DNA of 64,000 nt from a virus. Taxonomy: Duplodnaviria; Caudoviricetes. The stretch spans positions 1 through 64,000 of the IMG/VR virus record IMGVR_UViG_3300028591_000176; one strand, written 5' to 3'. Made by a program: the position numbers and the translations under genes. The notes under the pieces are model-generated. The model had not been told where the DNA came from. It searched no databases and saw only the letters and a list, made by a program, of their open reading frames with translations. Below, one piece after another: positions 3,267-58,637 of the stretch (position 1 is its first letter; each line of letters opens with the position of its first letter).

Positions 3267-4061
3267 TTATTTTTTAATACACGTTGTAAATAATTTCTCT
3301 AACTCCTCGACAGTTTTGATGTCCTTTGCGTCATAAAAGCTTAAAGCGACATCGTACTTTACGTTGTTTTCCTTCAGCCAAGAGCGCAATGCGTATCCTT
3401 GCAACGAGCCGCCAACATCGCTCCAGCCACACATTTCGCGGAAACGAAAACCAAAACGTCTGTTCCACGCTGCACTTAACAGCGGAAACGCCATCTTTAG
3501 CACGTCAATATGCTGACCGCTATCCTTTAGCTTTGTAATAAAGCCCGTCCTCTTTGAGCCGCTGTCGGCTACATTGCTAGCGTACAGGTTTACCCTGTAG
3601 CCCTTGCGTTCGAGGCTCATGATACAAGACACAACCCTTGCGCTGACCTTTGCAATCTCTTCTGCCGTCTCGTCTCCGTATGTGTTGCACCCGTATATAA
3701 CGGTCAGGACTTTCTGCGCCACTTTCTTCTCTTCAACCCAAAGCATATTGTTTGGTATGCCTGTAAGAAAGTTAGGTACATGCGGTGCAAAGCCTGCAAC
3801 ACGCGTCACGATGCGCTTCTGTACACCCGTGCTCGGCATGTGTATGTCTAGCTTGTCGCTTCCGCGTAACATCTTTGCCAGCTCATCGTCACCTTTGATG
3901 ATACGCTCCTCGGCCTCCTTGTACGTCTTCGTGCCGTACCACTCTTCGTTATACTCTGAATTGCTATTATAACCGCCCTTTTCGCTCCCAAGGTGAGCGA
4001 CCATCTCCGCAATGCTATTATAGCACACAAAGTCACTTTTTTTCATTTTTCTGCTTTTCAT
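3267..4061 (-). CDS. vWA-like partner of the adjacent AAA+ ATPase (putative)
   Basis: Directly downstream of a MoxR-type ATPase. Alternating beta/alpha pattern (VLTVIYGCN, YRVNLYA) with at best a degenerate MIDAS motif. Confidence 0.55.
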   Translation of the reverse strand: MKSRKMKKSDFVCYNSIAEMVAHLGSEKGGYNSNSEYNEEWYGTKTYKEAEERIIKGDDELAKMLRGSDKLDIHMPSTGVQKRIVTRVAGFAPHVPNFLTGIPNNMLWVEEKKVAQKVLTVIYGCNTYGDETAEEIAKVSARVVSCIMSLERKGYRVNLYASNVADSGSKRTGFITKLKDSGQHIDVLKMAFPLLSAAWNRRFGFRFREMCGWSDVGGSLQGYALRSWLKENNVKYDVALSFYDAKDIKTVEELEKLFTTCIKK

Positions 4062-4114
4062 ACCTCTTGCCTCCTATGCTTTAATATCGTTGTTTTAAGG
4101 GGAGGTGCGGATAT

Positions 4115-5593
4115 TTACCACACCTCCTCAGTACGCATCTGCTCAATGCAAGCCTTCATCGCCCGTGCCCACCTGTTTGACTTGTTTTCTAGATGCTCAT
4201 ACAGGTTTAGAGCATCGTCAACGGTCTTCTCCTGCAAGACCGAACCACGCAGCAGATGCGCATCATCGTTGCGGCAGCACTCCTGTAATGTGGCGAGGTC
4301 ACTGGCCTGCCTATAGCTGAATAGCTGACTGATGCCCGTCTTGTTAGCTGCCCTGCGGAGGTCTTCACCAAAGTTCACGATTTCCTCGTCACCGCCCGTT
4401 ATGCTTAGGAACACGTTACGGTCGTACGTCACCGTCTCAAAGAAGAAACGATTCTTAAAGCTAGTGTCCTGCATCTGTCGTGCCACGTACTCCATCGTCG
4501 CACCTGTCATGCGTGTGTTGCCTGCGGCAATAACACGGAAGTTCGGATGAGCGTTGACGTTGCCGATGACAGGAAAATCAAACCGCTTGTTTGCTATCGC
4601 GTTGTTTAACACGACAAGAGCCTCGGGTGCACTTGCGTCCACCTCATCCAAGAAGAACACACCTCCGTTCGCGAATGCCTTGTAAAATGCCGTCTCCACA
4701 AACTTGCCTGCGGCATCGCCGTAGCCTTTCAATTCGTAGGCGAATATCGCCTGCGACGTCTCGTAATAGTCCAAACCTAATGCCTCGGCAATCTGCTTTG
4801 CAGTGTACGACTTGCCGCTGCCAGCTGGTCCGTACATGTACAACGGCTTGCCAGCGTTGACAAGGTTGCAGAAGATGTCAAAATTCTTGTTGACAACGCC
4901 CTCGACCTTCACGATGCCTGCGGCAGACTTCACCTCTATGACACGACATTCCTGTTTGATGCCTGCAAAATACTCCTTCACGATGCTACGTACCTGCTCC
5001 TCGTTGACGGATGCCTCCTGCTGCTCAACTACAACAGGCTTAACAAGCCCTGCGATTTTCATGACAGCCTCAAACATGTCTGCGCCCATGCTGCCGTACT
5101 TTTCGGCTAACTCACGGCGAATGACGTCAGGCTCAATAAACTCAGACGCGATTTCTGCTGCGCTGCCCAAGACCTCCCGCTTGACGGGGTGGCTTTCCTG
5201 CTCCAGCTGCTCCCACACCTTTTCAGCCGTGACGTTTTCCACCTTGGCCTGCTCGGTCACCTCATTAACGACCTCCTCGACCTTAATTACCTCGACAGGC
5301 TCGCCGCCTAATTCGCGCACTTCGACCTGTGGGTTGATGACAGGCTCCTGCTTGGGCTTGCGTGCCTTCTTCGTGCCCTTTGCGCCCTTTGTGGCGAGAC
5401 TCCAGCCTTCCGCCAGCGTATGCATGTCGCGCCCGTCCTCAGACGTGCCTGCTGGCAAGACCATCGGGTACGACTCGTAAAAACGCTTGCCCTTATTCGG
5501 CCTGCGTGCCTCGCTGACAATCTGCCCGTTTTCTACTACAACGTTCAATACGTTGACAACTTCTCCCGTTGAAAGATTCTGTACTTTAATCAT
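4115..5593 (-). CDS. MoxR/CbbQ-like (AAA_5) AAA+ ATPase with long N-terminal extension
   Basis: Walker A GPAGSGKS, Walker B FFLDEVD, sensor region VIAAGNT, and a NRF arginine-finger-like motif. Acidic Glu/Val-rich linker in the N-terminal half. Confidence 0.85.
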   Translation of the reverse strand: MIKVQNLSTGEVVNVLNVVVENGQIVSEARRPNKGKRFYESYPMVLPAGTSEDGRDMHTLAEGWSLATKGAKGTKKARKPKQEPVINPQVEVRELGGEPVEVIKVEEVVNEVTEQAKVENVTAEKVWEQLEQESHPVKREVLGSAAEIASEFIEPDVIRRELAEKYGSMGADMFEAVMKIAGLVKPVVVEQQEASVNEEQVRSIVKEYFAGIKQECRVIEVKSAAGIVKVEGVVNKNFDIFCNLVNAGKPLYMYGPAGSGKSYTAKQIAEALGLDYYETSQAIFAYELKGYGDAAGKFVETAFYKAFANGGVFFLDEVDASAPEALVVLNNAIANKRFDFPVIGNVNAHPNFRVIAAGNTRMTGATMEYVARQMQDTSFKNRFFFETVTYDRNVFLSITGGDEEIVNFGEDLRRAANKTGISQLFSYRQASDLATLQECCRNDDAHLLRGSVLQEKTVDDALNLYEHLENKSNRWARAMKACIEQMRTEEVW

Positions 5594-8614: not shown

Positions 8615-8622
8615 TATCTTTG
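8615..8622 (+). promoter_or_regulatory. Bacteroidota -7 promoter element for the rightward replication operon
   Basis: TATCTTTG about 36 nt before the ATG at 8659. Confidence 0.65.
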
Positions 8623-8658: not shown

Positions 8659-8925
8659 ATGATTAAGGTAGAGGATGAAAGAAGATGGGCTTCGATATTA
8701 CAGATAGTCCAGTCAAGTCATTTAGACATTGTTATGGCGAGTTTGTCAAATGTGCTTGCAGAGATAAACAACGAATTATCGGTTACTGAAAAAGGTAGCA
8801 ATGAATATTTTCGTCTTACGCACCTTATGACGTTGTTTGGTGGTTGTTATTCTGCGATACGTGGTGCAGATGGAATAATCACAGGTATGGTCATTGACAT
8901 GTTGGATGGTTTGAAAGGAAAGTAG
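8659..8925 (+). CDS. Hypothetical protein (88 aa)
   Basis: First ORF after the promoter. Confidence 0.65.
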   Translation: MIKVEDERRWASILQIVQSSHLDIVMASLSNVLAEINNELSVTEKGSNEYFRLTHLMTLFGGCYSAIRGADGIITGMVIDMLDGLKGK

Positions 8926-8950
8926 ATGTTTCATGAAAAAATAGAATTAT

Positions 8951-9379
8951 ATGAAAGCGAATGAATTGATGATTGGCGACTGGGTATACAACACCCATAA
9001 TCGCCAGAACGAACAAGTCGCAGAAATAGGCAGCGGTCTTGTTATGCTTGCATACAATGACCTGTATGAGTATGACGAAATAGAGCCGATTCCTCTTGTT
9101 CCTGAAATACTTAAAAAAATGGGCTTTAAGGTCGAATTAGAGCCAAAGTATGACGACACTTACACGAAAGACGTGTATCTTGCCTATCTGAAATGTGTTG
9201 ATGCTAGAGGTTGCGATGTCGAGGTTAGATATGAAACTAGCGGCAATGAGTTGTCGGTGTTTAGTTCTGACAGGCGCAACATTCTTCCTTGTAAGATGGT
9301 TGACATGCAGGTTTGTTTTGCGCATGAGTTACAGCATATCTTTAATATGCTTCAAATTGACAAAGAGATTATTTTATAG
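8951..9379 (+). CDS. Hypothetical phage protein (MKANELMIGDWV...IEPIPLVPEILKKMGF type)
   Basis: N-terminal and IPL..EIL.K.GF motifs resemble a family I recall from Bacteroidota phages; function unknown. Confidence 0.75.
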   Translation: MKANELMIGDWVYNTHNRQNEQVAEIGSGLVMLAYNDLYEYDEIEPIPLVPEILKKMGFKVELEPKYDDTYTKDVYLAYLKCVDARGCDVEVRYETSGNELSVFSSDRRNILPCKMVDMQVCFAHELQHIFNMLQIDKEIIL

Positions 9380-9403
9380 ATATAGAATTTAATTTGTTTT
9401 ATT

Positions 9404-9778
9404 ATGGATTTAACATGTAAAGTAGTAAGTATTTTGCCTGAGCAGAGTTTTACTGGCAGGCAGGGTGAGTTTGTTCGTTTTGGGTTTGTCGGTGAGACTC
9501 AGGGTCAGTATCCTAAGAAGGTCAAGTTCGATGTGTTAGGTAGGGACAAGTGGGAGAAGTTATCTCCTTTCATTGTTCTTGGTTCTGACGTGCAGGTGTT
9601 CTTTGACGTGTCGAGTCGTGAGTATAATGGCAAGTGGTTTACCCAGTGTGATGCCTATAGGGTGTCTGTTATTGCTGCTGGTGCTAGTGCTACGGCGCAG
9701 GCTACTTCTGTTGCTCCTCCTGCTCCTGTTCAGCCAGCTGAATCTGCTGCCGATGCGCCTGATGCGTTGCCATTCTAG
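9404..9778 (+). CDS. Single-stranded DNA-binding protein, DUF3127-like
   Basis: OB-fold-like N-terminus (GETQGQYPKKVKFD, FDVSSREYNGKWFT), Ala/Pro linker, acidic DALPF C-terminal tip. Confidence 0.85.
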   Translation: MDLTCKVVSILPEQSFTGRQGEFVRFGFVGETQGQYPKKVKFDVLGRDKWEKLSPFIVLGSDVQVFFDVSSREYNGKWFTQCDAYRVSVIAAGASATAQATSVAPPAPVQPAESAADAPDALPF

Positions 9779-9788
9779 CTAGTTTATA

Positions 9789-10187
9789 TTGACTATCGTT
9801 CACGGAATCATGAGAAGGAAGGATATTCGCAGGGTTGCGCGTGATGCTGCTTTGCAGTCGTTATGTCGTGATTACCTTGGTCGTTTGCGTCATGTGGCTG
9901 ACAAGCATGGTCTTGGCGACTGGCTGCGTGGTTTGATAAAGAGCAACCGTCGTGGTGAGTGTCGTGGCACGGAGCATGAGGTTGCGATGTTAAGTCGTTT
10001 GTGTGATGATGAGCGTGTGCAGCGTCAGGATGTGCCGCGTGTTCTTGGTATGTCTTACCGTAAGGCTAATGATGGTGGTTTCTTTGACAAGGTAAAGCGG
10101 CTACGTCATGTAGGTGTGTACAGTAAGATTGGCGCGTTGTTGTTAGGTAGTGAGTTAAAGGCGTTGAGTGATGACAGCGAGCGTTAG
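9789..10187 (+). CDS. Hypothetical basic protein (132 aa)
   Basis: ORF packed between SSB and the first MTase. Confidence 0.65.
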   Translation: MTIVHGIMRRKDIRRVARDAALQSLCRDYLGRLRHVADKHGLGDWLRGLIKSNRRGECRGTEHEVAMLSRLCDDERVQRQDVPRVLGMSYRKANDGGFFDKVKRLRHVGVYSKIGALLLGSELKALSDDSER

Positions 10188-10818
10188 TGTCATGATGAAT
10201 TGCGACTGTATGGAGTACATGCGGCTCTTGCCTGATGGTTATTTTGCTCTTGCCGTTGCTGACCCTCCTTATGGTATTGGCATCGCGTCAAATCCTGTCA
10301 GGCAGGCTCATGTGCGTAAAGAGTGGGATAGTACCATTCCGTCTGACAAATTTTTCAGCGAGCTGTTTCGTGTCTCGAAGAATCAGATTATCTGGGGTGG
10401 TAATTATTTCGGGCTTCCTCCCAACAAGCATTTTCTTATATGGGATAAGCTACAGCCGTTTGATTTCAGTCTTGCGATGTGTGAATATGCATGGTCTAGC
10501 TTTGACAAGCCAGCTAAGATATTCAGGATGCGTGTTGTGTCTTCTAATGGAGTTAGCAAGATTCATCCGACACAGAAGCCTGTCGAGCTTTACGCTTGGA
10601 TATTACGCAACTACGCCAATGCTGGTGACGTCATTTTTGACCCAATGGTCGGTTCTGGTAGTAGTCGTATTGCTGCATATAAGCTTGGCTTTGATTTCTG
10701 CGGATGTGAGATTGACAAAGATTATTTTGACGCGCAAGAAGAAAGATTTAAGTCAGAGTGTCTTGGTGACATACAGGTGAGCAAAGAAAAAACAGTCAAA
10801 CAGCTAACTTTGTTTTAA
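10168..10818 (+). CDS. Orphan DNA amino-methyltransferase (beta class, N6/N4), ends QLTLF
   Basis: DPPY catalytic motif, HPTQKPVELY, SAM-binding DPMVGSGS, GCEID. No cognate endonuclease adjacent. Confidence 0.92.
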   Translation: MMTASVSVMMNCDCMEYMRLLPDGYFALAVADPPYGIGIASNPVRQAHVRKEWDSTIPSDKFFSELFRVSKNQIIWGGNYFGLPPNKHFLIWDKLQPFDFSLAMCEYAWSSFDKPAKIFRMRVVSSNGVSKIHPTQKPVELYAWILRNYANAGDVIFDPMVGSGSSRIAAYKLGFDFCGCEIDKDYFDAQEERFKSECLGDIQVSKEKTVKQLTLF

Positions 10819-10819
10819 T

Positions 10820-11584
10820 ATGATTGAGCTTAATAAAATATACAATGGCGATTGTCTTGATGTAATGCAGGGGATAGACGACAAAAGTGTTGATTTGATT
10901 CTTTGCGACCTGCCTTATGGCACTACGCCGCTAAAGTGGGATAGCATAATTCCTTTTGAGCCGTTGTGGGATGCCTACAAGCGCATAATAAAGCCTGATG
11001 GTGCTATTGTGCTGTTTGCCGTGCAGCCGTTCACCACGATGCTTATTTCAAGCAATATCGCCATGTGGAAATACAATTGGGTTTGGGTTAAGGACAATGG
11101 CACTAATTTTCTCAACTCTCATTTTCAGCCGTTAAAGATTACGGAGGACATTTGTGTCTTTAGTTTTAGTGCAGCATCACAGAACAGCAATCCGATGACG
11201 TATAATCCACAGATGCGTGAAGGGTTTGACTCATACGTACGTGTCAGGGGCGAGCGTAAGCCTAATGCGGTCACGCGTTCCAAATTGCAGCGTTGTACTA
11301 CAAACAACGACGGCACGCGTTATCCGACGAATATTTTGTATTTCAAAAGAGACAAAGAGAAGTTGCATCCTACGGCGAAGCCCGTTGACCTGTTACGTTA
11401 CCTCATTCGCACGTATACAGGCGAAGGCGGGCTTGTTCTTGATAATTGCGCTGGCTCTGGTAGCACTTGTATTGCTGCCATTCGTGAGAAGCGTAACTGG
11501 ATAGGCATTGAGCTTGATGAGGGTTATTTTAACCTAGCTTCCGAAAGAATTGCGCTTGAAAAACGGCAATTAACCTTATTTTAG
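10820..11584 (+). CDS. Second orphan DNA amino-methyltransferase (beta class), ends QLTLF
   Basis: DLPY catalytic variant, HPTAKPVDLL, DNCAGSGS, GIELD. Confidence 0.92.
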   Translation: MIELNKIYNGDCLDVMQGIDDKSVDLILCDLPYGTTPLKWDSIIPFEPLWDAYKRIIKPDGAIVLFAVQPFTTMLISSNIAMWKYNWVWVKDNGTNFLNSHFQPLKITEDICVFSFSAASQNSNPMTYNPQMREGFDSYVRVRGERKPNAVTRSKLQRCTTNNDGTRYPTNILYFKRDKEKLHPTAKPVDLLRYLIRTYTGEGGLVLDNCAGSGSTCIAAIREKRNWIGIELDEGYFNLASERIALEKRQLTLF

Positions 11585-11602
11585 TTAAATAACGCAAAAT
11601 AT

Positions 11603-11633
11603 TTTGTTGTATGGGATAAAATGCCTATCTTTG
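11603..11633 (+). promoter_or_regulatory. Consensus Bacteroidota promoter for the initiator/primase-helicase operon
   Basis: TTTG (11603-11606), 19-nt spacer, TATCTTTG (11626-11633). Confidence 0.8.
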
Positions 11634-11654
11634 CAAAAGAAAAAAACGATTCGA

Positions 11655-11786
11655 TGCGCTGCCAGCTACAATAGGCGCAAAGAACGAGAGATACATGTTA
11701 TAACAATCTTGCCTACGCGGGTGGTATGATGTTAGAGTAGCTGCTGACGGATTATCACCCGCAGGCTTTTAAAAACAGCTACAATG
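11655..11786 (+). ncRNA. Candidate structured 5' leader (two hairpins with complementary loops)
   Basis: Hairpin 1 loop CAGCTAC (11663-11669), hairpin 2 loop GTAGCTG (11737-11743), and a second CAGCTACAAT overlapping the start codon (11776-11785). Confidence 0.55.
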
Positions 11787-12692
11787 GATTTTAACAGAGA
11801 ATGTTTTACGTTTCATGCAGGTTGGTACAATGCCGTTGCCACGCTTGATAATAATGTCAGGCTTGAGGTGTATGATGCCATTATGCGTAAGGCGTTGTTT
11901 AACGAGCCGCCAAGCCTTTCTGTTGCGGGGCGTGTTGCTATGGCTTTCATTGAGCCGCAGTTGGAGCATGATACCGACAAATGGCTTATGGTGCGTGAGA
12001 AGCGCAAGGAGAGTGGAAAGAAGGGCGGGCTAGCAAAAGCTAGCAAATGCTACCAAATGCTACCAAATGCTAGCATTTGCCAGAACGCGCCCGCGCAAGA
12101 AAGTGTAGACACTATTATGTCTAGTCCTATCAGTAATAATTATAATATTATACACGAAGATAAAGACAAGGACGTATTAATAGAAAAAGAAAAAGAAACA
12201 CACAAAGAACAAGAAAAGGCTGCGCTTGAAGAAAAGAAAGAGAAAGACAATCTTTTTGAGAAATGCTGGGTGGCTTACAATCGCAAGGGCAGCAAGAAGA
12301 AGGCGCGTGCGCAATGGGACAAGCTCAGTCAGAAAGACCGCGAGAAGGTTATGCCGCACATAACGGCATACGTTAGCAGTCGTGAAAGACAGTTCCAGCG
12401 TGACTTTGAGCGTTACATCCGTGACAAGACTTTCTTGGATGTTATCACCAAGGGCAACAGCGTTGTCTTTGACCCGTCTTTTGATGGCGGTGCGGAGTAT
12501 CGTCCTTTGACTGACGGGAACATCCACTGGAATGACTTTCATAAGTGTTATATCTACGTCGGCATGTTCTATGATAACATCATCGACGGGTATACGGATG
12601 ACAACCGCCCTGATGGTGCTTGTATAATGTTGAACAATGCGCGTGGCACATTGGTGTGGCGTGCAGAAAGAAAAGAATGGGAGAAGATATGA
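11784..12692 (+). CDS. Putative replication initiator/organiser (DUF6291-like N-terminus)
   Basis: N-terminal FTFHAGWYNAV...RLEVYDAIM pattern, low-complexity charged linker, helical C-terminal domain. Sits upstream of the primase-helicase. Confidence 0.6.
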   Translation: MDFNRECFTFHAGWYNAVATLDNNVRLEVYDAIMRKALFNEPPSLSVAGRVAMAFIEPQLEHDTDKWLMVREKRKESGKKGGLAKASKCYQMLPNASICQNAPAQESVDTIMSSPISNNYNIIHEDKDKDVLIEKEKETHKEQEKAALEEKKEKDNLFEKCWVAYNRKGSKKKARAQWDKLSQKDREKVMPHITAYVSSRERQFQRDFERYIRDKTFLDVITKGNSVVFDPSFDGGAEYRPLTDGNIHWNDFHKCYIYVGMFYDNIIDGYTDDNRPDGACIMLNNARGTLVWRAERKEWEKI

Positions 12693-12892
12693 AGACGAAG
12701 AATTGTTTTTTCTGCGGCGAGGAGGTCAGGTGGAATAGCGATGCAATGGCAAACGAGATTCTTACTGGCTATGATAAAGATGATACGGCTGTAGTTAGCT
12801 TTTTCACCTGCCCAAGATGTGGGCGTTCGTATAGGGTTGCAGACCCTTCGCAAGAGGAACGTGAGAACGAATACCGTGAGTACTATTGTTAA
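12689..12892 (+). CDS. Small zinc-finger protein (67 aa)
   Basis: ATG at 12689 overlaps the upstream TGA; CFFC...CPRC pairs. Confidence 0.7.
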   Translation: MKTKNCFFCGEEVRWNSDAMANEILTGYDKDDTAVVSFFTCPRCGRSYRVADPSQEERENEYREYYC

Positions 12893-12901
12893 ATATAAAA
12901 T

Positions 12902-14989
12902 ATGGATGTAAACGAAATAAGAAAGTGGCACGATACGTTCAAACGCGAAGATGAATTGTTTGAAATACGTATATTGGGTGACAGAACTTGGAGCGGCTAT
13001 TTTTACGATGTAGAGAGCGCGATAAAGGCACTTGAACCATTTGATAATGCCAATATTTATTATTCTGTCAACGAAGTCAAAAAAGCATGCGCAAGCCGCG
13101 ACCAATTCAATTGCTTTAGACAGGTTAAAGGAACTGCTACAAGCAAGCAGGATATAGCGCACCGTTGGTGGTTGCCTATTGATGTGGATTGTGAGCGTCC
13201 AAGCGGCGTTAGCTCAACGGATGCAGAAAAAGCAAAGGCACACAAGAAGGCACAGGACGTATTTGTTTTTTTGCGTGACAATGGCTTTAGCACGCCAGTC
13301 GTTTGCGACTCATCAAGCGGCTATCATTTGCTTTATCCTATTGATATGGATAACACACAAGAAAGCGAAGATGTTATTAAGGCTTTTCTTGAAATCCTTG
13401 CGAACAACTTTACTGATGAGAGCGTTAAAATAGACACAGTTTTGCATGACGCAAACAGGATACTTCGTTTGTCTGGAACTTTCGGTCGCAAAGGGCGTTC
13501 AAGCGAAGAACGTCCGCATCGTCTTGCAAAGATTCTTGCAGTACCTAAAGACTTTCGTCGCATGACAGCTTCTCAGATAGAGAGTTTTAACGAGAAGTAT
13601 TCGATAAAGATAGAGCAACCTCAACGGCGGGCTTATAACGCAAACGAGGCTTGCCCTGAATTTAATTTGCGCGATTTTATTCAAAAATATGGTATAGAGA
13701 TTGCGAAAGAAGTCCCAATTAGCGGAGGAGGAACGAAATACGTTCTAGCCCATTGCCCATTTGATGAAGGACATAAAGCTCCTGATTCTGCTTTGTTTGA
13801 ACTTCCTAACGGTGCTATTGCTTTTAAATGCTATCATAATTCTTGTTCGCAATATGATTGGCGTGCGTTTAGGCTGCATTTTGACCCCCACGCATACGAC
13901 CATGAAAGTGAGCCACGGCAATACGCGAAACAAATACCGCAGCCGCGCCAATATGCCGTTCAAAAGCCTAAATATGTGATAAAGGACGAGTCGCCAGAGT
14001 TAGGCGGCAAGTGGCTTTCTTTGTCCGACATAAAAAAGGTAGACCTTTCGCAGATAGAGACCGTGAAGACAGGGTTTGCCGAACTTGACAGGGCTATCGT
14101 CGGACTGAACATGGCCGAGGTCACGTTGCTTAGTGGCAGCAATAGCTCTGGAAAATCTTCATGGCTAAATACCCTTATCCTTAATGTCATCAATCAGGGT
14201 ACAAAGGTCGCGCTGTGGTCAGGCGAGCTGCCAGACTATATTCTGAAAACGTGGATACAGATGGTTGCTGCTGGCAAACGCAACTTGCGCCTGTCTCAAT
14301 TTAAGGAAGGCAAATATTATGTGCCTGATAACATTGCTGCGCACATCGACCAATGGCTTGATGGGAAATTCTTCCTGTACAACAATGAATATGGCAACAC
14401 ATGGGAGCAGATATTCCATGACATGAATGAATTGCTAAAACTTGGAGTTAAATTGTTTGTACTTGACAACCTTTTTAGCCTTAATATCGACCTGCTTGAA
14501 GGTGACAGGAATAACAAGCAGAAAGAACTTATATTGCAGATTAAGGAGTTTGCGAAAAAGAACAAGGTACATATCATTCTGGTTGCGCATCCTAGAAAGG
14601 CGATGACATTCCTGCGCAAGAATGACATTAGTGGTACTAGCGACTTAACTAATGCCGTCGATGATGTGTTCATCATACACCGCGTTAACAATGACTTTTT
14701 GCGCACTGGCGAGGAGTTCTTTGGCAAAGGTTCTATGAGCCGCTTTGAAAGCTATGGAAATGTGGTCGAGGTTGCAAAGAACCGTATGTATGGCGTTGTA
14801 GACCTTATGGTTGGGCTGCACTATGAAATAGAAAGCAGGCGGTTTAAGAACAGCATCGATGAAGATTTAAGATACGGGTGGGAGGCAGAGCCGCAGCAAC
14901 AATCCTTTGAATACAACGAACCAGCACCGCAGGAAAGCGATGATGGCCTGCCTTTTGCTGCCTTTACTGATAGCAATGCCCCATTTTAG
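12902..14989 (+). CDS. Primase-helicase fusion: AEP-like primase, Cys/His linker, SF4 (DnaB/T7 gp4-like) helicase
   Basis: DVD and SSSGYHLLY primase motifs, HCPF...CYHNSC, Walker A GSNSSGKS, Walker B FVLDNL, LVAHPRK, DISG, VAKNR. Confidence 0.85.
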   Translation: MDVNEIRKWHDTFKREDELFEIRILGDRTWSGYFYDVESAIKALEPFDNANIYYSVNEVKKACASRDQFNCFRQVKGTATSKQDIAHRWWLPIDVDCERPSGVSSTDAEKAKAHKKAQDVFVFLRDNGFSTPVVCDSSSGYHLLYPIDMDNTQESEDVIKAFLEILANNFTDESVKIDTVLHDANRILRLSGTFGRKGRSSEERPHRLAKILAVPKDFRRMTASQIESFNEKYSIKIEQPQRRAYNANEACPEFNLRDFIQKYGIEIAKEVPISGGGTKYVLAHCPFDEGHKAPDSALFELPNGAIAFKCYHNSCSQYDWRAFRLHFDPHAYDHESEPRQYAKQIPQPRQYAVQKPKYVIKDESPELGGKWLSLSDIKKVDLSQIETVKTGFAELDRAIVGLNMAEVTLLSGSNSSGKSSWLNTLILNVINQGTKVALWSGELPDYILKTWIQMVAAGKRNLRLSQFKEGKYYVPDNIAAHIDQWLDGKFFLYNNEYGNTWEQIFHDMNELLKLGVKLFVLDNLFSLNIDLLEGDRNNKQKELILQIKEFAKKNKVHIILVAHPRKAMTFLRKNDISGTSDLTNAVDDVFIIHRVNNDFLRTGEEFFGKGSMSRFESYGNVVEVAKNRMYGVVDLMVGLHYEIESRRFKNSIDEDLRYGWEAEPQQQSFEYNEPAPQESDDGLPFAAFTDSNAPF

Positions 14990-15018
14990 CATCTTTTATA
15001 TTAAAAATCATTAAATAA

Positions 15019-16091: not shown

Positions 16092-16493
16092 ATGGATATA
16101 AACTTTCTAGGGCATATAGATGGGATACGATACACGGAAACTGCTGCTATCGTTACCGCAAGCGAGAGAAGGAAAGGGTTCAGAAAGTCCGATGGAACTA
16201 TCGTGGATGATGAAATACTTACTTTCCGATTCTTGTTCAAGCCCTATTTCAAAAGCTATATCAGCAAACATTTCAATTCTGGCATGCTGGTAAAGATAAA
16301 AGGAGTCATGCTGCCTTATGCAAAAGACCATCAGGGCAACATCATTGATGGTTTCACGTTGCTAGGGCAGACGATTGACATGGCATCTTATCAGACGAGC
16401 AGTGTTAAAGCTGAAAAGAGAATGATGAAAGAGTCGCAAGCGGCAAGCAATGAGACGCCAGACCTAGACGGATTCCAGCAGCCAGATTTTTAA
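16092..16493 (+). CDS. Second SSB-like OB-fold protein (putative)
   Basis: INFLGHI...GMLVKIKG pattern resembles SSB strands; acidic C-terminus DLDGFQQPDF. Confidence 0.5.
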   Translation: MDINFLGHIDGIRYTETAAIVTASERRKGFRKSDGTIVDDEILTFRFLFKPYFKSYISKHFNSGMLVKIKGVMLPYAKDHQGNIIDGFTLLGQTIDMASYQTSSVKAEKRMMKESQAASNETPDLDGFQQPDF

Positions 16494-50059: not shown

Positions 50060-50090
50060 ATTGTTTAATCCTTTTTAGGTTGTATCTTTG
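50060..50090 (+). promoter_or_regulatory. Promoter of the CCCE operon
   Basis: ATTG, 19-nt spacer, TATCTTTG (50083-50090); followed by hairpin ACGACAA...TTGTCGT at 50093-50118. Confidence 0.7.
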
Positions 50091-54723: not shown

Positions 54724-55356
54724 TTAAAGGTGTCCTAAGTTTGGAAAGTAACGTCTTTGACTCTCGTCCCATTTTGCTATGCAACCACAGTGTTGACAGC
54801 GAAAATCAAGTCCTTCTACCGCATAGCCCTCACGATTGCATTGAGGGCAGATAGTATTATACTTTCTTGGTATCGTAATAAAATGCTTTGTGAAGCTATC
54901 TCCTGAATCCAAAGCCCCGCTGTCATACATCGATTTGATAAGTGAGAGAATATCACGTACGGAGGCTTCTGAAAGGTCTGCTGAACGGTCATGCAGTAAG
55001 TTGTTCAGTAGCTTTTGCACATCAGAGCCAGTGAACTTATAGTCTTCAAGTGTGCTAGCCTTTTCTTGCACATCAGACTGATACAACGATTCAAACTCGT
55101 CTTTCAGCTGTTGGCATTCCTGCGTTTCAAACATTACCTGCGCATCTTTCCTTACCGTCGAAAGGTACTCTTCTTCATCTTCGCTAGGTATATTACGCTT
55201 GAACTCTGCCGTGTCGTACACGTTGGCATAGGCTATCTCTAGCCTTTCTCCCAGCACTACCTGCAAGACAAACAGGTATTGTTGCGGCGTAAAATCTACA
55301 AGCCGCGTGTGTAGTTGGTTTTGTGAATCTAGATAATTAAGCATGCTATTTGTCAA
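54724..55356 (-). CDS. Hypothetical protein with C-terminal zinc finger; terminase-small-subunit-like candidate
   Basis: CPQC...CQHC. FTPQQYLFVLQVVLGERLEIAYANVY loosely resembles a TerS N-terminal HTH. Confidence 0.4.
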   Translation of the reverse strand: MTNSMLNYLDSQNQLHTRLVDFTPQQYLFVLQVVLGERLEIAYANVYDTAEFKRNIPSEDEEEYLSTVRKDAQVMFETQECQQLKDEFESLYQSDVQEKASTLEDYKFTGSDVQKLLNNLLHDRSADLSEASVRDILSLIKSMYDSGALDSGDSFTKHFITIPRKYNTICPQCNREGYAVEGLDFRCQHCGCIAKWDESQRRYFPNLGHL

Positions 55357-55750
55357 ATAGTTCTGGTTGTTTGCTATCCCTGACCTCTATGTCTTTAACC
55401 TCAACGAGCGTAAACTCAATTCGAGGCGTGTGCTTATCTATGTATTTGTTGGCTACAATCTTTACACAGTTGCGGTCGTTCTTAATGGCTTTACATGACT
55501 GCAAACAATCAAGCAAGCCTTTTAATGAGTTGTCGAGGTCTGGCTGGTTGCTTTGAAAATAAACATCTGCATAGAGTTCAAAGAAGCCTTGTATATTGCG
55601 GTTGCGATAACCACATTGCAAGTAGAAACGTTTCTCAAACTCTTTCATTGCCGATGTCTTTGCAAGGCTTGCATGCCCGCCTATCGTAATAATCTTGTAC
55701 GAATTGGACTTACTCGGCACGACCCCGTAAATCACCTGTTCGTGTTTCAT
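55346..55750 (-). CDS. RusA-like Holliday junction resolvase
   Basis: GVVPSKSN, PDLDNSLKGLLDCLQ...IKNDRN; ends QPELFDK. Confidence 0.8.
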   Translation of the reverse strand: MKHEQVIYGVVPSKSNSYKIITIGGHASLAKTSAMKEFEKRFYLQCGYRNRNIQGFFELYADVYFQSNQPDLDNSLKGLLDCLQSCKAIKNDRNCVKIVANKYIDKHTPRIEFTLVEVKDIEVRDSKQPELFDK

Positions 55751-57512: not shown

Positions 57513-58637
57513 TCAATTTATAAGCATTGGCATGATTAGCGAGAGATATTCGTCTTTATTGTCGCCATAGCATACGGCTGCACGGCTAGGCTCTGTCATT
57601 TCGATGGTCACATACGTTGCATCTATGCTTTGCAGAAGCAGGAGAAGAATAGACCCCTTAAAGCCAATCAAAAGGTCTTCACCCCTATACGAACACAAGA
57701 CTGTTTCATGTGCCGACTTGCTGAAATCGAAATCCTCTGCGCTGACAACGACTTTTTGGTCACCAAACTGCAAAGCCACAAGCTCGCTCTTTTCATTTCC
57801 CATAGGAAGCACACGGCGCAGGGCGGCAATCATATCACCACGGCTGATAGTAGCCACAGCCTTACATTCTTTCGGGATAACACGATTATAGTCAGGATAA
57901 CGACCTTCAATAAGCCTTGCCGTAAGCTTGAAAGACTCATTGCTTATAACAACAGCCTTGTCCGTGAACTCAATCTTTACGTCACCATCCGTTGTGCTTA
58001 ACACCGACATTGCAATGTTTGCGGGTTTCTTTGGCAGCGTAAACGACGACTGTCCTTCGGCAGTAATGCTAACAGCCGAATCACAATACCGTGCAAGCTT
58101 CTGCCCATCGCTAGAGGCTGTTATAATAGCATTAGGCATAATATCGAAATGAATGCCGTTCATTACAGGACGAAGCTCATCATTAGCCGTAGCAAACCCA
58201 ACCTTCTCAATGTCACGAAGAAGATTTTTGCTATAGATAATATAGATAATCTGTGTGGTTGAATTTTCCATCGTCGCCATTGACATAGGAAATTCATCTG
58301 CGTTTTCATACGGCATGGAGAAACGACCGTTGTTGTAATGGCATGTGATGGTGTTGTTTTCGTTGATAACCATCCTTACGCTGTCATCATCAAGGTTACG
58401 TAATGCCAGAAGGAAATCATGCGCGTTGATACAAATCTTTGCTTCACCTTCCTGCTCTTTGATTGGGCATTTCACGCTAAGCCACACCTCACTGTCGCTT
58501 GTCGTAAGAATAGCCTTATCGGGATAGATGTGCATAAGCACATTATCGAGGATAGGCAATGCGTTTTTGTTACTCACCACCTTTGCGACCAGTGCCAACC
58601 GTGGTGTCATTTCTTTTGCTTCAAATATTACTTCCAT
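57513..58637 (-). CDS. dnaN: DNA polymerase III beta sliding clamp (phage-encoded)
   Basis: 374 aa; NALPILDNVL, RPVMNGI, SSDGQKL, LIEGRYPDYNRVIP, IGFK and C-terminal LIMPM are DnaN signatures. Confidence 0.92.
   Translation of the reverse strand: MEVIFEAKEMTPRLALVAKVVSNKNALPILDNVLMHIYPDKAILTTSDSEVWLSVKCPIKEQEGEAKICINAHDFLLALRNLDDDSVRMVINENNTITCHYNNGRFSMPYENADEFPMSMATMENSTTQIIYIIYSKNLLRDIEKVGFATANDELRPVMNGIHFDIMPNAIITASSDGQKLARYCDSAVSITAEGQSSFTLPKKPANIAMSVLSTTDGDVKIEFTDKAVVISNESFKLTARLIEGRYPDYNRVIPKECKAVATISRGDMIAALRRVLPMGNEKSELVALQFGDQKVVVSAEDFDFSKSAHETVLCSYRGEDLLIGFKGSILLLLLQSIDATYVTIEMTEPSRAAVCYGDNKDEYLSLIMPMLIN

Follow-up and report, generated by a model that had tools for sequence, protein, structure and literature searches.

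The window analysed here, the first 64 kb of the 76,969-bp IMG/VR virus record IMGVR_UViG_3300028591_000176 (estimated to be 97% complete), carries two adjacent genes for DNA methyltransferases (MTases), called MTase A and MTase B below. Both products end in the same pentapeptide, QLTLF, a candidate motif for binding the bacterial beta sliding clamp, DnaN. A clamp gene and a gene for a RusA-like resolvase with a similar motif lie further along the window (Table 1).

Table 1. Positions of the methyltransferase genes, the candidate clamp-binding motifs and the associated features in the window
Feature	Position	Strand	Details
MTase A, beta-class N6/N4 DNA methyltransferase	10168..10818	+	PF01555, E 3e-17; phrog_67, E 8e-42; DPPY motif
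QLTLF, candidate clamp-binding pentapeptide of MTase A	10801..10815	+	codons CAG CTA ACT TTG TTT; end ...TVKQLTLF
MTase B, beta-class N6/N4 DNA methyltransferase, M.MboIIA-like	10820..11584	+	PF01555, E 5e-26, full length; phrog_67, E 6e-77; DLPYG motif
QLTLF, candidate clamp-binding pentapeptide of MTase B	11567..11581	+	codons CAA TTA ACC TTA TTT; end ...EKRQLTLF
RusA-like Holliday-junction resolvase	55346..55750	-	PF05866; third motif-bearing protein of the genome
QPELF motif of RusA	55355..55369	-	followed by DK and stop codon
Phage DnaN, full-length beta sliding clamp	57513..58637	-	PF00712, PF02767 and PF02768 above cut-off; residues 1-371
DUF3127 / SSB-like protein	9404..9778	+	PF11325, E 8e-21; phrog_4932, single-strand DNA binding protein; acidic tip ...DAPDALPF
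TATCTTTG promoter-like element	8615..8622	+	heads transcription unit through the SSB-like gene and both methyltransferases

The two enzymes scored 63.7 (MTase A) and 92.4 bits (MTase B) against PF01555, for which the cut-off is 26.7, and both had the motif order of the beta class, in which motif IV precedes the S-adenosylmethionine-binding motif I (DPPYG followed by FDPMVGSGSS in MTase A, DLPYG followed by LDNCAGSGST in MTase B). The solved relatives nearest to the pair were M.MboIIA, M.RsrI, CcrM and DpnA, with CcrM and DpnA nearest to MTase A and M.MboIIA (1g60, E 1e-16) the structural match of MTase B, which has 254 residues. MTase A has 216 residues when counted from a GTG, although translation may in fact begin at one of the ATGs shortly downstream of it; the enzyme is likely to be adenine-specific. 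These are the sole methyltransferases of the genome, in which no C5 or Dam-type methyltransferase was found. Because MTase A and MTase B are only 23% identical, their common tail is not the product of a recent duplication, an origin that is also ruled out by the independent presence of the tail in each family.

The positions and codons of the two tails given in the initial annotation were confirmed. The codons differ at four of the five positions, and a stop codon follows directly after each tail. The tail of MTase A is preceded by a linker of approximately 20 residues, which is weakly conserved among the homologues, and that of MTase B immediately follows the last helix. The AlphaFold2 model of MTase B (pLDDT, the predicted local distance difference test, 88.7; pTM, the predicted template modelling score, 0.86) placed a helix at residues 234-249 and then a coil at 250-254, and the last block, residues 251-254, had a mean pLDDT of 52. 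The pentapeptide of MTase B is predicted to form an exposed coil tip beyond the last helix, with low model confidence.

The pattern Q[LP]xLF was present exactly three times among the approximately 120 open reading frames (ORFs; 24,137 residues) of the whole 76,969-bp genome, and all three occurrences were C-terminal, in MTase A, MTase B and RusA. For a C-terminal QxxLF the expectation was 0.044 per proteome against the three observed, and three were reached in none of the composition-matched simulations (0/20,000). A chance origin of the tails is ruled out by these figures.

Conservation of the tail was followed in the best 120 database homologues of each enzyme, with identities of 59-96% to MTase A and 56-98% to MTase B. 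Among the MTase B homologues, 84 of 120 ended in F, and the logo of those 84 had Q in 62, L in 44 or P in 30, T in 51 or S in 11, and L in 83 sequences before the final F. Among the MTase A homologues, Qxx[LMI]F was present at most three residues from the end in 86 of 120; the 63 sequences ending in F had Q in 60 and L in 53. The information content of these F-ending sequences was 4.0 bits at Q(-5) and 3.5 bits at L(-2), compared with 1.2-2.2 bits at the linker positions -6 to -12. Also the IMG/VR relatives of MTase A mostly carried the motif, 57 out of 80 having it at most six residues from the end. The resulting logo, Q-[L/P]-[T/S]-L-F, stands at the extreme C-terminus after variable linkers. 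Together with the strong over-representation at the C-terminus, this conservation agrees with the proposal of the initial annotation that the tails are under selection at the protein level.

The same tail was found on fused methyltransferases of 650-750 residues in related phages, and in 11 related phages encoding DnaN the strict motif ended approximately 14 of the 21 PF01555 enzymes. Distant relatives of MTase B in bacterial genomes had comparable ends after dissimilar linkers, namely ...GQLTLFDG in Phormidium (Cyanobacteria), ...QPDLFGEAV in Acinetobacter, ...PQIDLFATA in Pseudomonas and ...QEPMF in Thiothrix. Such a spread across phyla, with unrelated linkers, is typical of a motif that would have been gained repeatedly for a universal bacterial partner. 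Conserved between drifting flanks and present on unrelated scaffolds and at either terminus, the pentapeptide has the signature of a putative short linear docking motif.

Some relatives depart from the common arrangement. In four IMG/VR relatives of MTase B (L011-L014) the match spans approximately 1137 bases instead of approximately 770, which points to a putative insertion of approximately 120 codons within the methyltransferase gene. Two related clamp-encoding phages have a third PF01555 methyltransferase (G059:C1:70592-71230 and G063:C1:72502-73128, both on the minus strand), with one in-frame TAA between its halves; the upstream half ends ...QN[IV]LMFKK..., and the G063 copy begins MAQQGLDLFG. 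This split gene may be broken, phase-variable or read through. The cultured Rhizobium phage 16-3 (NC_011103.1, L290) encodes DnaN (p081) and two adjacent methyltransferases, p096 and p097, of which p097 ends ...VGNLFGDAA, a degenerate tail without the Q.

The third motif-bearing protein, RusA, had been described in the initial annotation as ending in QPELF. This needs correction, as the protein ends ...KQPELFDK and the motif lies two residues from the C-terminus. In the RusA family as a whole, 11 of 150 representatives had Qxx[LMI]F at a terminus, six of them C-terminally and five N-terminally; the chance expectation, which we estimate at approximately 0.65 from typical residue frequencies, is much lower. 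N-terminal examples among these representatives (P0361-P0510) are MKKQRSLFD..., MSKQEKLFD... and MKKASQVSMF.... The position independence of the motif in this family is a hallmark of a short linear motif, as far as can be read from the sequences, and suggests that some RusA resolvases, too, may be recruited to the clamp.

The phage DnaN has 374 residues and matched 55 clamps in the PDB, the best being 8dt6 (E 8e-44). As stated in the initial annotation, it is complete, with an intact LIMPM pocket at the C-terminus (end ...SLIMPMLIN); all three domains are present. The pocket positions G178, K180, L181, P248, Y250, V253, I254, P255, M369 and P370 were invariant across 60 related phage clamps. 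Subsite 1, which takes the L-F pair, was conserved: SDGQKLA, GRYPDYNRVIP and IMPML in the phage clamp correspond to TDGHRLA, GRFPDYRRVLP and VMPMRL in Escherichia coli and Pseudomonas aeruginosa. The client-binding cleft of the phage DnaN is conserved, by this alignment, in subsite 1 only.

No recognisable Pol A, Pol B or Pol III alpha was found in the genome, and no convincing clamp loader. An AAA_5 ATPase of 492 residues (4115-5593), adjoining a DUF7192 protein (region 3267-5593, minus strand), was considered as a loader and rejected, its only relevant match being a weak one to a clamp-loader PHROG (E 9.5e-8) and its appearance MoxR/CobS-like. The replication set of the phage consists of a primase-helicase, the SSB-like protein (a relative of single-stranded DNA-binding proteins), RecT, a RecE-like exonuclease, RusA, RNase H and two HNH endonucleases. 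As neither a polymerase nor a convincing clamp loader is encoded, the phage clamp must work with host proteins.

The bacterial clamp-binding pentapeptide, reportedly defined by Dalrymple et al. in 2001, has the consensus QL[S/D]LF, and the tails of both MTases have its general form, Q-x-x-[L/M/I]-F. The pentapeptide has been reviewed more recently (PMC9690074). We consider it rather likely that the QLTLF tails are motifs of this type, by which the methyltransferases are tethered to sliding clamps while the DNA replicates. Following the catalytic domain as a flexible tip, the tail would insert in the hydrophobic cleft between domains II and III of DnaN. Clamps are loaded where primers end and stay behind on the duplex just made, and because they remain there, a tethered methyltransferase would be concentrated on nascent phage DNA and able to slide along and scan it. 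Methylation would then reach all progeny genomes ahead of packaging and of attack by restriction enzymes, even during fast replication. Binding, sliding with the clamp and the benefit against restriction are here inferred from the motif and the pocket. The partner would not need to be the phage clamp, as the host clamp would be enough in many relatives. The phage DnaN may be a second or preferred platform, because its pocket has been kept and there is no phage polymerase for it to serve; its candidate clients would be the two methyltransferases and RusA, the sole phage proteins with the motif. Consistent with tethering at replication, both methyltransferases lie within the replication block and share a promoter-like site with the SSB-like gene.

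Co-occurrence of the tail with a phage clamp was surveyed in 50 IMG/VR records of at least 30 kb with a relative of MTase B. A clamp-like gene was present in 16 of the 19 records with tailed enzymes and in one of the 31 with tail-less enzymes, and the three tailed exceptions were only 32-78% complete. When the records at least 90% complete are considered, the counts are 10/10 tailed and 1/12 tail-less. The raw Fisher p-values of this association, 3e-9 and 3e-5, overstate the evidence. A stand-alone dnaN is missing from two complete phages (83-87 kb) whose methyltransferases are QPSLF-tailed (G006:C1:30217-30618 and G007:C1:11209-11616, both on the minus strand; the records behind L011 and L013). 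In each of them the central clamp domain is weakly matched within an ORF (656-686 residues; E 3e-11 and 5.5e-5), which may represent a fused or very divergent clamp.

Several observations weigh against tethering to the clamp. On the MTase B tree the tail changes state four times, so that there are only about three independent tailed clades, all with a clamp, and a sign test on two to four independent pairs is without statistical power. In the MTase A family a clamp gene was found in none of the 12 records of at least 25 kb, including four complete tailed phages of 31-54 kb. Subsite 2 of the phage clamp is partly diverged, with K327 and I330 in place of N320 and Y323 of E. coli. Approximately a quarter to a third of the close homologues are without the tail, and the tail is therefore dispensable for catalysis. 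The QxxLF tip could in principle also serve another partner.

The strongest competing explanation is that the tails are meant specifically for the clamp of the phage, whose DnaN would be a dedicated tool-belt for its DNA-modifying and DNA-processing enzymes, the host clamp being irrelevant. This would account for a phage that has a clamp and neither a polymerase of its own nor a recognisable loader, and in which the motif is confined to two methyltransferases and RusA; also the counts among the MTase B relatives and the strict motif on most PF01555 enzymes of the related DnaN-encoding phages are in its favour. These counts, however, shrink to about three independent lineages, and the complete phages with tailed MTase A relatives have no clamp gene. 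The same is true of three cultured phages with tailed enzymes, Bacteroides phages BF486P1 (...VQTSLFGV) and BI-TP1 (...VQTNLFDK) and Cellulophaga phage Nekkels_1 (...SQTTLF), and five bacterial genomes with tailed MTase B relatives have the host dnaN only. A strict requirement of the tail for a phage clamp is ruled out by the clampless tailed phages of the MTase A family and by these bacterial genomes, and we regard a tail dedicated to the phage clamp as unlikely. Because tailed relatives occur without a phage clamp gene, the tail is independent of the phage clamp and the host clamp would suffice. The co-occurrence that the initial annotation suggested surveying was borne out in the relatives of MTase B, in about three lineages, and failed in the MTase A family (0/12). 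Likewise, the link to the clamp stood as far as the clamp-type motif and the conserved pocket are concerned, but the stress laid on the phage's own clamp did not. The host clamp would be the general partner, and the phage clamp, with its host-like cleft, an optional extra platform.

A docking partner other than the clamp is less probable still. The tail could be a short linear motif for an SSB or recombination protein of the phage or host, for a methyltransferase subunit, or for a protease adaptor, in which case it would act as a degron limiting methyltransferase levels. The link to DnaN is drawn from sequence comparison, and different tips, acidic and ending in PF or DF, are present on other proteins of the replication block, so that the phage may have several terminal docking peptides. 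The logo, however, fits the clamp consensus at every position, the recurrence across phyla, with different linkers and at either terminus, points to a universal bacterial partner, and in one family the tail is associated with clamp genes. To our knowledge, neither a degron nor a peptide for docking on SSB has the form QL[ST]LF. That the tails chiefly compete for the host clamp pocket as a means of host takeover, displacing repair or regulatory clients of the host such as Hda, MutS or translesion polymerases, with the methyltransferase as a carrier only, is very improbable: over-produced MuC does deplete the clamp and disturb the regulatory inactivation of DnaA through a clamp-binding motif (10.1101/2025.01.04.631326), but the motif is here selectively on DNA-acting enzymes, the two methyltransferases and RusA, among approximately 120 ORFs, and competition could be had at lower cost from a free peptide or from a small protein made in abundance.

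The replication block around the methyltransferases holds the SSB-like DUF3127 protein, both MTases, a DUF6291 initiator-like protein and the primase-helicase. The immediate neighbours of the methyltransferases are the DUF3127 protein, an ORF of 132 residues without a family match (9789-10187) and the DUF6291 protein; the enzymes are putative orphans, as the 132-residue ORF could be a cognate restriction endonuclease. The promoter-like element TATCTTTG occurs in nine copies in the window, compared with 3.0 expected, and nine were reached in no shuffle. The block 8659-11584 is flanked by the copies at 8615 and 11626, and further copies are at 50083, 53906 and 61339 and at four more positions, several of the sites lying just upstream of gene blocks. 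The element presumably corresponds to the -7 promoter consensus of the Bacteroidota and so points to a host in this phylum, as do the nearest relatives of the methyltransferases in cultured phages, those of Bacteroides phages.

Three proteins of the replication block have acidic tips with a terminal aromatic residue, resembling the tips of SSB proteins: the DUF3127 protein, the primase-helicase (12902-14989, plus strand; ...DDGLPFAAFTDSNAPF) and an unannotated protein of 133 residues (16092-16493, plus strand; ...DLDGFQQPDF). In addition to the clamp motif, there thus seems to be another docking code at the protein ends. Megablast of positions 9000-15000 of the window against the GenBank phages gave no match, and the phage has no close cultured relative. 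The nearest matches of its DnaN among the GenBank phages were uncultured human-faecal contigs, with 38% identity, and the phage is of gut type.

Full-text literature searches gave, within the literature covered, no report in which a DNA methyltransferase of bacteria or phages is connected with the beta clamp, in line with the initial annotation, to which no characterisation of this for phage methyltransferases was known. In a paper on a plasmid ssDNA methyltransferase (PMC7736820), the clamp is raised only by way of speculation, as an intermediary for Pol I. What appears to be new here is thus not the docking system, which is known, but its putative clients, methyltransferases and RusA. We give about even chances to the wider proposal that the orphan methyltransferases of phages and prophages, together with some RusA resolvases, form a large unrecognised class of beta-clamp clients, in which the clamp remaining on nascent DNA would be the landing pad for replication-coupled methylation and phages would thereby shield each new genome copy from restriction, and that phages with a clamp and no polymerase keep the clamp partly as a tool-belt.

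If the tails bind the clamp, this would explain how orphan phage methyltransferases keep pace with very fast phage replication, and DNA methylation and Holliday-junction resolution would join the processes organised by the clamp. A C-terminal Qxx[L/M]F would then be a simple sequence marker distinguishing replication-coupled phage methyltransferases from tail-less relatives of the same family. Clamp-pocket inhibitors or deletions of the tail are predicted to make such phages restriction-sensitive, and the cultured systems with the same tail, BF486P1, BI-TP1 and Nekkels_1, make the idea directly testable.

Among the orphan phage methyltransferases of the beta class (PF01555 / phrog_67) and their solved relatives M.MboIIA (1g60), M.RsrI, CcrM and DpnA, the two enzymes are ordinary in their catalytic domain and in the order of motif IV before motif I, and their context is putatively orphan as well. 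They differ in the tail, as a clamp-docking tail has been described for none of the solved or characterised PF01555 relatives; CcrM has a C-terminal DNA-binding domain instead.

The classical clients of the beta clamp that carry the Dalrymple pentapeptide include Pol II, Pol III alpha, Pol IV, UmuC, MutS, MutL, Hda and some transposases. The phage tails resemble these in the form of the pentapeptide (Q, hydrophobic, small or polar, L, F), in their place at a flexible terminus and in the conservation of the phage cleft residues for the L-F pair, but their carriers, DNA methyltransferases and a RusA resolvase as candidate clients, were not met with among the described clients in the literature covered. 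Precedents for a phage protein that exploits a clamp by means of a terminal motif are MuC of Mu (PMC12867686) and gp33 and gp55 of T4, which act with gp45 (PMC9690074). These, too, are non-polymerase phage proteins with a clamp-binding peptide, for which the clamp is a mobile platform on the DNA, as is proposed here for the MTases; they are, however, transcription factors coupling late transcription to replication, whereas the enzymes considered here modify or process DNA.

In eukaryotes, DNMT1 is coupled to PCNA through a PCNA-interacting protein (PIP) box (reviewed in PMC9690074), so that a maintenance methyltransferase is tethered by a peptide to a sliding clamp and newly replicated DNA is methylated preferentially. 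The tethering proposed for the phage enzymes would be a prokaryotic parallel to this system. The two differ in that DNMT1 is a C5-cytosine enzyme that uses PCNA and the PIP box QxxLxxFF and serves epigenetic inheritance, whereas the phage enzymes would use DnaN and the pentapeptide and serve protection from restriction. The phage tails are not PIP boxes but have the form of the bacterial pentapeptide, and DNMT1 is accordingly a functional analogue of the phage methyltransferases, not a homologue.

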